Positions 20,625 through 56,830 of a stretch of 64,000 bases of DNA are shown here, piece by piece. The stretch is taken from assembly GCF_044647545.1 (NCBI RefSeq), contig NZ_CP172818.1. The stretch is one strand, 5' to 3'. Each line of letters opens with the position of its first letter. The stretch's first letter is position 1. Origin of the DNA: Escherichia coli. Its GTDB lineage: Bacteria; Pseudomonadota; Gammaproteobacteria; Enterobacterales; Enterobacteriaceae. The notes under the pieces were generated by a model that did no database searches, was not told the origin of the DNA, and worked only from the letters and a program-made list of their open reading frames with translations. The translations under genes and the position numbers were made by a program.

Positions 20625-21625
20625 TCAGAGTTTGGCGAATTTTTCCAGGGTACGAATGAGTTGAGTGACGAAACCATACTCGTTATCGTACCAGGCGACG
20701 GTCTTCACCAGTTGTAAATCGCCCACTGCGGTGATTTCCGTTTGGGTCGCATCAAACACCGAACCGAAATGGCTGCCAATGATATCGGAAGAGACAATTT
20801 CTTCGTCGGTATAACCAAACGATTCGTTATCGGTTGTTGCTTTTTTAAGTGCGTTATTCACCTCTTCAGCAGTCACTTTTTTCCCCAGGATAGACACCAG
20901 CTCGGTCACTGAACCTGTTTTCACTGGCACGCGTTGCGCATGGCCTTTAAGTTTGCCGCTAAGTTCGGGGATCACCAGACCAATGGCTTTTGCCGCACCT
21001 GTAGTGTGGGGAATGATATTTTCTGCCGCTGCACGTGAAGCGCGTAAATCTTTACCTCGCGGACCATCCACCAGTGACTGAGTGCCGGTATAGGCATGAA
21101 TGGTCGTCATCGTGCCGACTTCTATTCCGAAACTGTCATGCAAGGCTTTTGCCATCGGAGCAAGACAGTTAGTGGTACAGGATGCCACGGAAACAATGGT
21201 GTCGTTGCATCCAGAGTGTCGTCATTGACGTTATAAACGATAGTTTTCATTTCACCGGCAGGGGCGGAAATCAACACCTTCTTCGCGCCAGCATCGAGAT
21301 GCGCCTGAGATTTCTCGGCGGAGGTATAAAAGCCAGTACATTCGACAATGATTTCTGCGCCTTTCGCTTTCCACGGAATATTTTTAGCCTCTTTTTCGGC
21401 GTAAACCGCGATACTTTTCCCATCAACGATAAGTGAATCTTCCGTAAAATCAACGCTCCAGGGGAACGGTCCGTAGTTTGAATCATGTTTCAGCAGGTAG
21501 GCGAGAATTTTTGGGGAAGTGAGATCATTAATAGCGACAATGTCTATGTTGCTTTTGACTTCAAGTAATCGACGCAACACCAGTCGACCGATACGACCAA
21601 AACCGTTAATACCAACTTTACTCAT
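20625..21625 (-). pseudogene. gapC: Glyceraldehyde-3-phosphate dehydrogenase paralogue split by a frameshift
   Basis: Two overlapping minus-strand ORFs in different frames (21122..21625 is the N-terminal NAD-binding part, 20625..21188 the C-terminal part carrying [10 protein letters not shown]). Confidence 0.8.
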
Positions 21626-49429: not shown

Positions 49430-49609
49430 GTTTGGCCTCAATAAAATAATGATGATGACGTTATCAATACTATCGAAAACAGCCCGAAGCAACGGATTCC
49501 TCGATGAAATTATTGCGTGTTGCAGAGGGGATGTGACGGCTGCAAACAAAACCATTCCTGCGAGCCTGCTACTATTGATGGATTCATGCCAAAAGCACAG
49601 GAGAGCATT

Positions 49610-50647
49610 ATGGGGCAACAAAAGCAGCGTAACCGCCGTTGGGTTCTGGCCTCGCGTCCGCATGGCGCGCCGGTTCCGGAGAATTTCCGTCTTGAAGAAG
49701 ATGATGTCGCCACACCGGGTGAAGGACAGGTGTTACTGCGCACAGTTTATTTGTCCCTGGACCCGTATATGCGTGGACGTATGAGCGATGAGCCATCTTA
49801 TTCACCGCCTGTTGATATTGGCGGCGTTATGGTCGGCGGCACGGTGAGCCGTGTCGTGGAGTCGAATCATCCTGATTATCAGCCTGGCGACTGGGTACTG
49901 GGCTACAGTGGATGGCAGGACTATGACATATCCAGTGGTGATGAACTGGTGAAACTTGGCGATCATCCGCAAAATCCATCGTGGTCGCTGGGTGTGCTGG
50001 GGATGCCAGGCTTTACTGCTTATATGGGCCTACTGGATATCGGTCAGCCTAAAGAGGGCGAAACGCTGGTGGTTGCGGCGGCGACAGGACCAGTAGGGGC
50101 GACGGTGGGGCAAATCGGCAAACTTAAAGGTTGCAGAGTGGTGGGGGTAGCCGGTGGCGCGGAAAAATGCCGCCATGCTACCGAGGTGTTAGGCTTCGAT
50201 GTTTGCCTTGATCACCACGCGGACGATTTTGCCGAACAACTGGCGAAAGCGTGCCCAAAAGGTATTGATATCTATTATGAAAACGTGGGCGGTAAGGTAT
50301 TTGATGCAGTGCTACCATTACTTAATACATCTGCGCGCATTCCCGTTTGTGGCTTAGTGAGCAGCTATAACGATACAGAGCTACCACCCGGTCCGGATCG
50401 TTTACCCCTGTTGATGGCAACGGTGCTGAAAAAACGCATTCGCTTGCAAGGGTTTATTATTAGTCAGGATTATGGTCACCGCATCCATGAGTTTCAGCAA
50501 GAGATGGGGCAGTGGGTAAAAGAGGGAAAAATTCACTATCGTGAACAAGTTACCAACGGTTTGGAGAACGCCCCACAGACGTTTATTGGCCTGCTGAACG
50601 GCAAAAACTTCGGTAAAGTTGTTATTCGCGTCGCGGGTGATGACTAA
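49610..50647 (+). CDS. curA: NADPH-dependent curcumin/enone reductase (medium-chain dehydrogenase family)
   Basis: 345 aa from MGQQKQRNRRWVLAS… behind an AGGAGAG site; Rossmann motif AAATGPVGATVGQ. Confidence 0.85.
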   Translation: MGQQKQRNRRWVLASRPHGAPVPENFRLEEDDVATPGEGQVLLRTVYLSLDPYMRGRMSDEPSYSPPVDIGGVMVGGTVSRVVESNHPDYQPGDWVLGYSGWQDYDISSGDELVKLGDHPQNPSWSLGVLGMPGFTAYMGLLDIGQPKEGETLVVAAATGPVGATVGQIGKLKGCRVVGVAGGAEKCRHATEVLGFDVCLDHHADDFAEQLAKACPKGIDIYYENVGGKVFDAVLPLLNTSARIPVCGLVSSYNDTELPPGPDRLPLLMATVLKKRIRLQGFIISQDYGHRIHEFQQEMGQWVKEGKIHYREQVTNGLENAPQTFIGLLNGKNFGKVVIRVAGDD

Positions 50648-51546: not shown

Positions 51547-53649
51547 TCACTCAAATCGCCACGCAACATTCACGCCGATACCATAATTTCGTCCGGGCGC
51601 AGGTTCGTAATATCGCCCGTTTGACTCATTGACAATGACAGAACCAACGTATTCTTTATCGAATAAATTATCGACACGACCAAATAAATCCACGGTTAAA
51701 TTGTGGTAATTGTATTTATACCCGGTGAATAAGCCGACGAGTGTATAAGACGGCGCTTTTGCCGTATTTTCATCATCTGCCATAATATCGCCCATATAAC
51801 GCGCTTCCGTGCCTGCATACCAACCATCTTCCGGTATATAACCTATCGACGCAAAGCCCATATTACGGGCGATCCCTGGCATCCGGTTACCGTTACAATC
51901 CTGTTCATTGCAAACATTGCTGCGATAGGTCGCATCAAGCCAGGTCCAGGACGCTTTTACGCGAAAATCTCCCGCGAAACGTTGATCCCATGCCAGTTCA
52001 GCGCCTTGACGACGGGTCTTTCCGGCATTTTTGTAAGTCGTACGCCCACCGCTACTGCTATCGACAACAATTTCATCATCGGTGTCGGTCTGGAACAATG
52101 CGAGACTAAGCAGCCCATCACCAATACGCGTTTTACTGCCGATCTCAATTGTATCGTTGGTGGAGGGTTTTAACCCAAAGTTCATACCGCTTTGTCCATC
52201 AGCACGATAAGACAGCTCATTAATCGTCGGCGTTTCAAAACCTCGCCCGGCTGCCAGATAGATATTCCAGGCATCGGTCATTGCATATTTTAACGAACCG
52301 GCAGGTAGCCATTTGTGATAACTGGCATCACCGCTGTCATCGCCGTTACCCGGAGTAACGTAATGGTCGTTGGAATCAAACCACACGGAGCTGTAGCGCA
52401 CGCCAGCATCCAGCGACAGTTTTTCGCTCAGCTGCCACTGCGTCTGTAAATAGGGATCGACGTTCCACATCAGATTGCGTTCGTCGCGGCGCAACTCACC
52501 TTTTTGCCCGTATTCCGGCACGCCGCTATTCAGGCGGAAGTTATTGTAGCCCTTGCGGTTTTCACTCATGTTTTCGTAGTTCAGGCCGGTAGTGAACGTG
52601 AGCGGAACGCCCAGTTCACCACGGTGTGTCCAGCGGCTGTCTATCCCCTGATAATGGCGTTGCAGAGTAATCACGCCGCCCGCATGTGACGGGTTAAGTT
52701 GGGGAGCCATCGGGATTGACTGGTACTGGGTCGTTTCTCGCTCCCCGGCATACATCATCACACTCATCTCATCCCGCGAACTCAGGCTACGCTCATAGCG
52801 CAACCCAGCCTGAGTTTGCTTGATGGTTTTTCGCGTGTCGTACTGTTCAGCGCGTGGCGCTTGTTGCGGATTCGCCTTCCATTCTGCTTCGGTTAGCCCA
52901 CCTGGGTCATCTGCTTTGATATCCACACTATTGAAAATCAGGCTTAATTTGCTGGCGTCATCAATGCGTACGCCCAGTTTGGCATTGGCTAAATTTTTCT
53001 GTGCGCCACTATGGTCACGATAGCCGTGGGTCGTAAAACGCGTGGTTGAGACGGTGTAATCGACATCGCCAGGCTGTGTGCCGTCGCCCGTTGCGCCTGT
53101 TGCTTTCAGCCCATAGCGCCAGCTGCCAAAACTGCCGTAGTAACTACTGGCTTCAATGGTTGGTGGCTGTTGTCCGGTCTGGGTGATGACATTCATTACA
53201 CCGCCAGACGCGTTGCCATACAGAGCAGAGAAGGGGCCACGCAGCACTTCCACATTTTGCACACTGCTTAAATCGATGTTGGATGTTTGCCCTTGCCCGT
53301 CGGGCATGGTGGCGGGAATACCGTCCACATACAGGCGAATACCGCGAATTCCGTAAGTGGAGCGGGAGCCAAATCCGCGAATCGACAGCTGTAAATCTTG
53401 CGCATAGTTCTGCCGGTTTTGTACCTGCAAACCAGGCACGCCAGTCAGTGATTCAGACAAGTTAATGCGCGGTGTTGCCAGGCGCATCTCCTCGCCATCC
53501 ACCACGCTCACGGCTGCTGGGGTATCCAGTTCTGAAATCACCTGCGGCGCGGCACTGACAATCATGGTCTGTTCATCAGCGGCAAAAACAACGGGGGAAA
53601 GGACAAGCAGTGCGGGCAAAACGGTCTGTCGGACGGAAAAAATCTTCAT
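51547..53649 (-). CDS. yncD: TonB-dependent outer-membrane receptor
   Basis: 700-aa ORF with signal peptide, plug domain and C-terminal barrel ending in aromatic F. Confidence 0.85.
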   Translation of the reverse strand: MKIFSVRQTVLPALLVLSPVVFAADEQTMIVSAAPQVISELDTPAAVSVVDGEEMRLATPRINLSESLTGVPGLQVQNRQNYAQDLQLSIRGFGSRSTYGIRGIRLYVDGIPATMPDGQGQTSNIDLSSVQNVEVLRGPFSALYGNASGGVMNVITQTGQQPPTIEASSYYGSFGSWRYGLKATGATGDGTQPGDVDYTVSTTRFTTHGYRDHSGAQKNLANAKLGVRIDDASKLSLIFNSVDIKADDPGGLTEAEWKANPQQAPRAEQYDTRKTIKQTQAGLRYERSLSSRDEMSVMMYAGERETTQYQSIPMAPQLNPSHAGGVITLQRHYQGIDSRWTHRGELGVPLTFTTGLNYENMSENRKGYNNFRLNSGVPEYGQKGELRRDERNLMWNVDPYLQTQWQLSEKLSLDAGVRYSSVWFDSNDHYVTPGNGDDSGDASYHKWLPAGSLKYAMTDAWNIYLAAGRGFETPTINELSYRADGQSGMNFGLKPSTNDTIEIGSKTRIGDGLLSLALFQTDTDDEIVVDSSSGGRTTYKNAGKTRRQGAELAWDQRFAGDFRVKASWTWLDATYRSNVCNEQDCNGNRMPGIARNMGFASIGYIPEDGWYAGTEARYMGDIMADDENTAKAPSYTLVGLFTGYKYNYHNLTVDLFGRVDNLFDKEYVGSVIVNESNGRYYEPAPGRNYGIGVNVAWRFE

Positions 53650-53783
53650 GAAAAAAGCCAGGTTAAGAATGGGAAAACGCCGTCATGGTAATAAAATTGT
53701 AAATTTATGGAAAACGAAACGGCACGATACGTTAAGTAATTGAGAAAATTGTAGTCGTAACGGCAAGAAATGCTCCACATTTG

Positions 53784-53802
53784 ATAAAATAATGATTACC
53801 AT
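53784..53802. promoter_or_regulatory. Putative Fur box in the yncD/yncE divergent region
   Basis: GATAAAATAATGATTACCA resembles the Fur consensus GATAATGATAATCATTATC; a second partial match AACGATGATTACG lies about 25 bp downstream. Confidence 0.5.
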
Positions 53803-53890
53803 TCCCATTTATAACAAAAGCGTAACGATGATTACGCTTAGCGAAGCATTGTGAAGCAGCAAAAATATCGGTTCATCAAAGGGAGTCGTC

Positions 53891-54952
53891 ATGCATTTAC
53901 GTCATCTGTTTTCATCGCGCCTGCGTGGTTCATTACTGTTAGGTTCATTGCTTGTTGCTTCATCATTCAGTACGCAGGCCGCAGAAGAAATGCTGCGTAA
54001 AGCGGTAGGTAAAGGTGCCTACGAAATGGCTTATAGCCAGCAAGAAAACGCGCTGTGGCTCGCCACTTCGCAAAGCCGCAAAGTGGATAAAGGCGGCGTG
54101 GTTTATCGTCTTGATCCGGTTACTCTGGAAGTGACGCAGGCGATCCATAACGATCTCAAGCCGTTTGGTGCCACCATCAATAACACGACTCAGACGTTGT
54201 GGTTTGGTAACACTGTAAACAGCGCGGTCACGGCGATAGATGCCAAAACGGGCGAAGTGAAAGGCCGTCTGGTGCTGGATGATCGTAAGCGCACGGAAGA
54301 GGTGCGCCCGCTTCAACCGCGTGAGCTGGTAGCTGATGATGCCACGAACACCGTTTACATCACTGGTATTGGTAAAGAGAGCGTGATTTGGGTCGTTGAT
54401 GGCGAGAATATCAAACTGAAAACCGCCATCCAGAACACCGGTAAAATGAGTACCGGTTTAGCGCTGGATAGCAAAGGCAAACGTCTTTACACCACTAACG
54501 CTGACGGCGAATTGATTACCATCGACACCGCCGACAATAAAATCCTCAGCCGTAAAAAGCTGCTGGATGACGACAAAGAGCACTTCTTTATCAACATCAG
54601 CCTTGATACCACCAATCAGCGTGCATTTATCACCGATTCTAAAGCGGCAGAAGTGTTAGTGGTTGATACCCGTAATGGCAATATTCTTGCGAAGGTTGCG
54701 GCACCGGAATCACTGGCTGTGCTGTTTAACCCAGCGCGTAATGAAGCCTACGTGACGCATCGTCAGGCAGGTAAAGTCAGTGTGATTGACGCGAAAAGCT
54801 ATAAAGTGGTGAAAACGTTCGATACGCCGACTCATCCGAACAGCCTGGCGCTGTCTGCCGATGGCAAAACGCTGTATGTCAGTGTGAAACAAAAATCCAC
54901 TAAACAGCAGGAAGCTACCCAGCCGGACGATGTGATTCGTATTGCGCTGTAA
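53891..54952 (+). CDS. yncE: Periplasmic seven-bladed beta-propeller protein YncE
   Basis: 353-aa ORF with signal peptide (…SSFSTQAAEE) and repeating propeller blades. Confidence 0.8.
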   Translation: MHLRHLFSSRLRGSLLLGSLLVASSFSTQAAEEMLRKAVGKGAYEMAYSQQENALWLATSQSRKVDKGGVVYRLDPVTLEVTQAIHNDLKPFGATINNTTQTLWFGNTVNSAVTAIDAKTGEVKGRLVLDDRKRTEEVRPLQPRELVADDATNTVYITGIGKESVIWVVDGENIKLKTAIQNTGKMSTGLALDSKGKRLYTTNADGELITIDTADNKILSRKKLLDDDKEHFFINISLDTTNQRAFITDSKAAEVLVVDTRNGNILAKVAAPESLAVLFNPARNEAYVTHRQAGKVSVIDAKSYKVVKTFDTPTHPNSLALSADGKTLYVSVKQKSTKQQEATQPDDVIRIAL

Positions 54953-56564: not shown

Positions 56565-56830
56565 TGCTCTCCCTGATTGCTTTAATGAAAAAGTCATATA
56601 AGTTGCCATGAACAATGTTTATTCATCCTGGCGATGATAGTTATCACCATTATTCTTTATGGGTATAAAACTATCGGCGCAGCATCCTACCCGTTATCGA
56701 TAAACGATGCAAAACATCCCCTTACAATCCTGAAGGGGAATAATACAACTGACGAAAAAATGACAAATCCTTTTGCTGGTTAACCTGTGTACTGTCCTAC
56801 ACTTAATCTTTAAAAGATTGTGAGGGGCAT

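Follow-up and report, generated by a model that had tools for sequence, protein, structure and literature searches.

The Fur box between pqqU (yncD) and yncE of Escherichia coli is most probably the operator of yncE

Introduction

The core Fur regulon of E. coli comprises genes whose Fur boxes overlap their promoters, such as fhuA, cirA, fiu, fhuF, and ryhB, and the palindromic motif of these boxes, AATGATAATCATTATCATT, is common to the box upstream of yncE that is described here. Like the core boxes, the yncE box scores within the range of the training sites used below, is occupied by Fur in iron-replete cells only, and precedes a gene that is strongly derepressed. Unlike theirs, its downstream gene is no recognised iron transporter, siderophore, or storage gene; the E. 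coli yncE box also scores in the lower third of the range.

A second group of described systems consists of the divergent regions fepA–fes, fepD–entS, and fepB–entC. As in these, the yncE box is situated in a short divergent region beside a gene for a TonB-dependent receptor. Contrary to these systems, only yncE responds consistently at the pqqU–yncE locus, pqqU being unresponsive in MG1655; moreover, the receptor PqqU carries pyrroloquinoline quinone (PQQ), and some 100 bp separate the predicted promoter of pqqU from the box. A further parallel is provided by cirA, which, like yncE, is repressed by Fur at the level of transcription and activated by RyhB post-transcriptionally. The leader of yncE also contains complementarity to the RyhB core, as do the RyhB-activated mRNAs of cirA and shiA, although the pairing site of yncE is a predicted one.

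The presence of a Fur box and the iron repression of yncE are correct and already documented; publications have described Fur control of yncE from 2003 onwards, with confirmation by ChIP-seq or ChIP-exo and by RNA-seq in several strains. YncE is among the most strongly Fur- and RyhB-controlled proteins of E. coli and a conserved vaccine antigen. The present analysis adds the position of the operator at the level of base pairs, evidence from genome comparison that assigns the operator solely to yncE, and a conserved hairpin in the leader which, together with a predicted RyhB site, offers concrete targets for mutagenesis.

The pqqU–yncE locus

The locus was analysed within a window of 64 kb, i.e., the whole stretch of DNA under study, which derives from an E. 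coli chromosome. Several E. coli chromosomes match the 701 bp surrounding the site at 100% identity, and of 5426 complete E. coli genomes, 5411 contain this region. The gene pqqU (yncD; 51547–53649, minus strand) encodes the TonB-dependent PQQ importer, annotated by RefSeq as TonB-dependent receptor PqqU, and its product scores 1311.9 bits against NCBIfam NF041535, above the curated equivalog cut-off of 1200. On the plus strand, yncE (53891–54952), the gene under Fur control, encodes a Sec-exported seven-bladed beta-propeller that scores 561 bits against NF052280 (curated equivalog cut-off 400). Near-identical solved structures are available for both proteins, namely PDB 6V81 and 9C4O for PqqU, and 3VGZ, 3VH0, and 7SEU for YncE. 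The two genes are separated by a divergent gap of 241 bp (53650–53890); mcbR and curA follow beyond pqqU, and ansP and yncG beyond yncE.

Sequence and register of the Fur box

The Fur-box-like site that an earlier note on this DNA had placed in the 241-bp gap is real and well beyond chance, with its core 5–8 bp to the right of the string quoted there. That string, GATAAAATAATGATTACCA, occurs once in the window, at 53783–53801, and is in its exact register a poor match to the 19-bp Fur consensus. A search of the 64-kb window for the classical 19-bp consensus GATAATGATAATCATTATC with at most three mismatches returned no site, because the real site carries four; the best match to the consensus in the 64 kb, on either strand, lies at 53788–53806 (15 of 19 positions) and overlaps the quoted string.

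The register was established with a matrix trained on 15 intergenic regions of well-known Fur-repressed MG1655 genes (fepA–fes, fepD–entS, fepB–entC, fhuA, fiu, cirA, tonB, exbB, fecI, fhuE, fhuF, ryhB, sufA, feoA, and fur) by unseeded palindromic expectation-maximisation, which makes it independent of any preset consensus. The top five of 1147 starts converged on equal likelihood, and the learned motif AATGATAATCATTATCATT (15.9 bits) is the Fur box. When the window was scanned with this matrix, the primary Fur box AATGATTACCATTCCCATT at 53791–53809 reached 15.34 bits, the top score among about 64,000 positions, with the runner-up more than 4 bits lower. The training sites themselves score between 10.7 and 22.0 bits, five of the 15 falling below the E. 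coli yncE box, whose sequence is hence comparable with that of bona fide Fur sites. When the 241 bp were shuffled 5000 times with dinucleotides preserved, no more than 4 of the shuffles (0.08%) attained 15.34 bits.

Fur hexamer arrays are typically phase-shifted by 6 bp. A second, overlapping Fur-like site is found at 53785–53803, displaced from the primary box by 6 bp; both sites overlap the quoted string. The second site scores 8.29 bits in this strain, whereas K-12, with G at position 53785, reaches only 4.0 bits.

Other candidates in the window were set aside. The second-ranking matrix match (position 20672, 11.1 bits) lies inside an open reading frame, and the third (position 50264, 10.1 bits) falls by its coordinates inside the open reading frame 49517–50647. 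The palindrome GATAGTTATCACCATTATT between ansP and yncG (56636–56654) matches the consensus at 14 of 19 positions on both strands but does not exceed 3.2 bits with the matrix, and it is probably not a Fur site. Expression of ansP is reported to be 2.6-fold down in the MG1655 fur deletion.

Conservation of the box and its association with yncE

One genome per species was taken for comparison, which yielded 79 yncE loci from Escherichia, Citrobacter, Salmonella, Enterobacter, Klebsiella, Raoultella, Kluyvera, Lelliottia, and other genera. A Fur site of at least 9 bits is present between −110 and −50 of yncE in 72 of the 79 loci, mostly at −94 to −104, and in all 60 loci with an adjacent yncD. 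The seven exceptions comprise two loci at a contig end, two distant relatives with a strong site farther upstream, and three Erwinia loci that lack a site. The conserved sequence of the box reads AATGATTAC[C/T]ATTC[C/T/G]CAT[T/C], and in many genera the site reaches 18–20 bits, above the E. coli box with its 15.3 bits and four mismatches.

In the alignment, the flanks diverge freely and the box is near-unchanged across more than 15 genera. The block CTCCAC[A/T]TT (53773–53781), located just 5' of the box, is invariant in 25 aligned genera or species, among them genomes without yncD. Across 5379 E. coli records, the 32 bp surrounding the box do not differ, even though most genomes share only 95–99% identity over the 701 bp of this region.

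The loss of the neighbouring receptor gene in some lineages reveals to which gene the box belongs. In ten Citrobacter loci, yncD has been cleanly deleted, which leaves mcbR or curA as the upstream neighbour of yncE; in these loci, the box remains at −97 to −100 from yncE and scores 18–20 bits. Additionally, yncD is truncated in E. albertii (L019) and pqqU is frameshifted in CFT073 (L095), and both retain yncE with the box at an unchanged distance from it. Since the box keeps its distance to yncE after the loss of yncD, it belongs to yncE. The homology of the genomes with the deletion breaks to the left of about 53745, which indicates that the stretch from 53745 to the ATG is the control region of yncE itself and that the conserved blocks at 53680–53740 travel with yncD. 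The operator is thus not linked in evolution to both of the divergent genes. The deletion loci, some with and some without mcbR, carry the identifiers L023, L024, L026, L028, L031, L032, L034, L038, L079, and L090 in the comparative set.

Fur occupancy and derepression of yncE in published data

Published work provides the in vivo counterpart of these observations. Several papers cite McHugh et al. (2003) for the finding that yncE is iron-repressed via Fur and for the Fur box noted there, and Beauchene et al. (2015) found Fur bound upstream of yncE and its RNA levels raised by RyhB. When the box is mapped onto the strains for which binding data are available, it coincides with the reported signals: it corresponds to 1711867–1711885 in CFT073, with the ChIP-seq summit of Banerjee et al. 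(2020) inside it at 1711868, and to 1524921–1524939 in W3110, where the ChIP-exo peak of Gao et al. (2023; PMC10164565) at 1524928–1524940 falls on the box. In MG1655, the box lies at about 1521229–1521247 (version 2 coordinates) and is overlapped by the peak of the same study at 1521238–1521250, which is seen under iron-replete conditions only. The published peaks, as mapped here, therefore place Fur on the site in vivo in an iron-dependent manner. A supplementary note of a 2026 preprint states that RegulonDB holds no annotation of this Fur site.

Two details of the ChIP-exo data concern the use of this resource. In the MG1655 sheet of Dataset 2 of PMC10164565, the gene, locus-tag, and location columns are one row off from P37 onward; the tonB peak is consequently labelled acnA and the yncE peak adhP, and a literal reading misassigns the yncE site. 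Furthermore, an MG1655 ChIP-exo Fur peak lies inside the 5' part of yncD, at 1520944–1520980 (version 2), corresponding to about 53507–53543 of the window. The matrix scan found no Fur-like motif under this peak (best score −0.6 bits), which may represent a shoulder of the main peak or non-specific signal.

The expression data point in the same direction for yncE. In the RNA-seq of Banerjee et al. (2020) for CFT073, yncE was raised 147-fold in the fur mutant and 18-fold in the fur ryhB double mutant relative to the wild type. Gao et al. (2023) reported derepression of yncE in eight of nine strains upon deletion of fur, with log2 fold changes from 3.1 (MG1655) to 8.1 (W3110), i.e., a 9- to 280-fold rise. 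YncE was over-produced in a fur mutant by western blot, yncE rose 16-fold with a chelator, and the gene is listed in the Fur-1 and Fur-2 iModulons as well as in the direct Fur regulons of MG1655 and CFT073. Derepression of yncE is thus documented in published values both for fur mutants and for iron limitation.

These data bear directly on the possibility that the site is a chance resemblance in AT-rich DNA and that yncE responds to iron indirectly, e.g., via RyhB alone. The intergenic DNA is indeed AT-rich, the site lies four mismatches from the 19-bp consensus with none in the window within three, and RyhB does raise yncE. However, the box holds the top score of the 64 kb, at a level that shuffled sequences hardly ever reach, and it is kept across genera while its flanks diverge; the ChIP peaks centre on it in three strains, and an 18-fold derepression persists in the double mutant from which RyhB is missing. 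This explanation is already contradicted, and we give it next to no credence. We therefore propose, with a probability of roughly 0.93, that the motif serves Fe2+-Fur as its operator at the yncE promoter, with RyhB as a second layer of control, and that the operator is that of yncE and not of pqqU/yncD.

The yncE promoter and the mode of repression

The best sigma-70-like pair on the plus strand is TCCACA and TACCAT with a 17-bp spacer, a weak pair matching at 8 of 12 positions. The candidate −35 hexamer TCCACA (53774–53779) is located inside the invariant block 53773–53781, and the candidate −10 hexamer TACCAT (53797–53802) inside the Fur box itself, where it reads TACTAT or TATTAT in other genera. 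From the position of these hexamers, transcription of yncE would start at about 53809. The conserved candidate hexamers, despite their weak match of 8/12, put the box over the predicted −10 element and start site, an arrangement that suggests repression by promoter occlusion.

In iron-replete cells, Fur occupies the operator and yncE is kept off; Fur dimers over 53785–53809 would cover the putative −10 element and start site and so exclude RNA polymerase. Upon iron scarcity, or when fur is deleted, Fur leaves and yncE is transcribed. RyhB then raises the mRNA level and translation several-fold, through pairing with the yncE leader that is predicted at 53843–53859, immediately 3' of a conserved hairpin. 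Since RyhB is itself repressed by Fur, Fur controls yncE twice, directly and via RyhB; the direct branch and the branch through RyhB together constitute a coherent feed-forward loop.

The mode of repression depends on where transcription begins. If the start of yncEp in RegulonDB lies elsewhere, e.g., near 53771, repression would come from Fur as a roadblock downstream of the start and not from occlusion. The MarA site that RegulonDB gives at −41.5 of yncEp fits a start at about 53809 only if it corresponds to the marbox-like stretch that is centred near 53768. Control of yncE by MarA was not retained as a candidate; it is a weak RegulonDB annotation and was not recovered in Reg-Seq.

Regulation of pqqU and the question of a shared operator

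The earlier note had expected one or both of yncD and yncE to be iron-repressed. This holds for yncE, with Fur peaks in three strains and strong derepression; for yncD, the support is weak and varies with the strain. In the fur deletions of Gao et al. (2023), yncD showed a log2 fold change of 0.12 in MG1655, which was not significant, of 2.95 in W3110 (7.7-fold, p 3e-51), and of 2.02 (4-fold) in strain 042. Grinter and Lithgow (2020) and Hantke and Friz (2022) describe yncD as neither iron-induced nor Fur-regulated. The statement that yncD is not Fur-regulated is true for MG1655 but is not absolute, and the response in the fur mutants of W3110 and 042 implies that the operator may not be strictly one-directional.

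A single bidirectional Fur operator repressing both pqqU/yncD and yncE, as at fepA–fes or fepB–entC, would account for the two responsive strains. In Gao et al. (2023), the W3110 peak is attributed to the two transcription units alike, and according to a review, MAPS recovered yncD and yncE together as head-to-head overlapping untranslated regions. Moreover, a distal pqqU promoter match on the minus strand, TTCACA-16-AATCAT (53855–53828), is located inside the yncE leader; with 9 of 12 positions it is the best on that strand, and transcription from it would cross the box. Against a shared operator, the W3110 and MG1655 intergenic DNA is identical, and yncD is nevertheless unresponsive in MG1655; two papers place the gene outside Fur and iron control; and yncD was significant in only two of the nine strains, making it an accessory member of the Fur regulon, compared with eight of nine for yncE, so that joint derepression of the two genes was not observed as a rule. 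The −10 element of the distal match is also poorly conserved, reading AGTCAT in Enterobacter and related genera, and the cargo of PqqU is PQQ, not iron.

The layout of the region argues in the same sense. A candidate proximal pqqU promoter on the minus strand (53685–53713) consists of a −35 hexamer TTTCCA (53713–53708) and a −10 hexamer TACCAT (53690–53685) with a 17-bp spacer, matching at 8 of 12 positions, and each hexamer sits in a block whose conservation is confined to genomes with yncD. These yncD-linked promoter blocks are separated from the box by 75 bp or more, and the Fur box is about 110–130 bp upstream of the putative pqqU start, too far for occlusion. The distance between the box and yncE, as noted above, survives the deletion of yncD. 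Taken together, these observations leave a shared bidirectional operator unlikely, and an operator belonging to yncE is preferred.

With the operator assigned to yncE, the response of yncD in W3110 and 042 could reflect Fur-sensitive read-through from the distal minus-strand promoter match or could be indirect. It is also conceivable, though we consider it distinctly improbable, that the operator gives pqqU a conditional, strain-dependent iron response, that PQQ scavenging is in part tied to iron starvation, and that YncE takes part in a periplasmic step of PQQ or gluconate metabolism. Such a conditional response of pqqU might arise through the distal promoter, whose transcription would cross the box, or through coupling to the derepressed divergent yncE promoter.

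A further conserved element of the region lies just upstream of the candidate proximal pqqU promoter, at 53720–53739. This marbox-like, TTAAC-N10-GTTAA sequence, ACGGCACGATACGTTAAGTA, is conserved across yncD-bearing genera and is lost along with yncD in Citrobacter.

Function of pqqU and yncE as a pair

The earlier note had also suggested that the receptor and the beta-propeller form a two-component uptake or scavenging system with an unknown ligand. The ligand of the receptor has in fact been established, since YncD is PqqU, a high-affinity TonB-dependent importer of PQQ, for which the ligand was identified in 2022 and the complex solved (published 2025). A contribution of YncE to this uptake has not been borne out: in the work of Hantke and Friz (2022), a pqqU deletion required 30–100 times more PQQ, and in PQQ growth and MacConkey assays the yncE deletion did not differ from the parent, so that the two genes do not share a loss phenotype. 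Nor do they co-occur strictly, for yncE is found without a functional adjacent yncD in several lineages. The wild-type behaviour of the yncE deletion and the repeated loss of yncD beside a retained yncE argue against an obligate two-component uptake system.

A looser version of this proposal holds that pqqU and yncE are a functional pair for PQQ or a PQQ-linked product, e.g., gluconolactone, and that the Fur box ties the use of PQQ to iron starvation. The divergent arrangement in 60 of the 79 loci would be consistent with it; some databases name YncE a 'PQQ-like domain' or 'PQQ-dependent catabolism-associated beta-propeller' protein, and Hantke and Friz speculate that YncE might be a periplasmic gluconolactonase. 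However, YncE scores only 65 bits against TIGR03866, far under the cut-off of 287, and is not mentioned in a large PqqU survey. The parental phenotype of the yncE deletion, the retention of yncE where yncD has been lost, and the difference in Fur response between the two genes also speak against the pairing, which we regard as very unlikely.

The yncE leader: a conserved hairpin and complementarity to RyhB

The 5' leader of yncE contains a conserved stem-loop of 7 bp with the loop CGAUGA (53819–53838, plus strand), which was detected by RNAalifold covariation. All seven pairs display compensatory double changes, and the loop C[G/C]AUGA is kept across genera. In the alignment, 91.9% of the cells are paired, compared with 36–52% in slid controls, and none of 500 shuffles attained the covariation score. 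G-U cells (28) outnumber A-C cells (5), which indicates that the hairpin is read on the plus strand, i.e., as RNA of yncE. A promoter scan had reported only a minus-strand promoter and a terminator-like hairpin; the reading as a terminator was rejected on the grounds that the covariation and the G-U bias denote a plus-strand RNA and that no conserved T-run follows the hairpin on the minus strand. The hairpin may lend stability to the mRNA, offer a binding site to Hfq or another protein, or be part of a RyhB-responsive fold.

Downstream of the hairpin, the leader segment GAAGCAUUGUGAAGCAG (53843–53859, plus strand) is complementary to nucleotides 42–58 of the RyhB core. When leader windows of 24 nt were paired with the RyhB core, the duplex of RyhB with this segment had a predicted energy of −20 kcal/mol, a value attained by 0.8% of random 24-mers of the window. 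Most genera retain complementarity to the same region of RyhB at −45 to −54, with energies of −19 to −31 kcal/mol, despite sequence changes. From its sequence, the segment may be where RyhB pairs when it activates yncE.

Previously, RyhB has been found to activate a yncE-lacZ fusion, and yncE is a major RIL-seq partner of RyhB. The contribution of RyhB to yncE expression is roughly 3- to 8-fold; a review gives a CopraRNA energy of only about −5 kcal/mol for the RyhB–yncE pair. The leader hairpin and the RyhB-complementary stretch agree with the published activation of yncE by RyhB.

In the loci of Pseudescherichia vulneris and its relatives (L042, L048, and L051), the box lies at −55 to −59 from yncE and not at about −100. 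The leader of these three loci lacks both the hairpin and the RyhB-complementary segment, and it thus constitutes a natural leader deletion variant.
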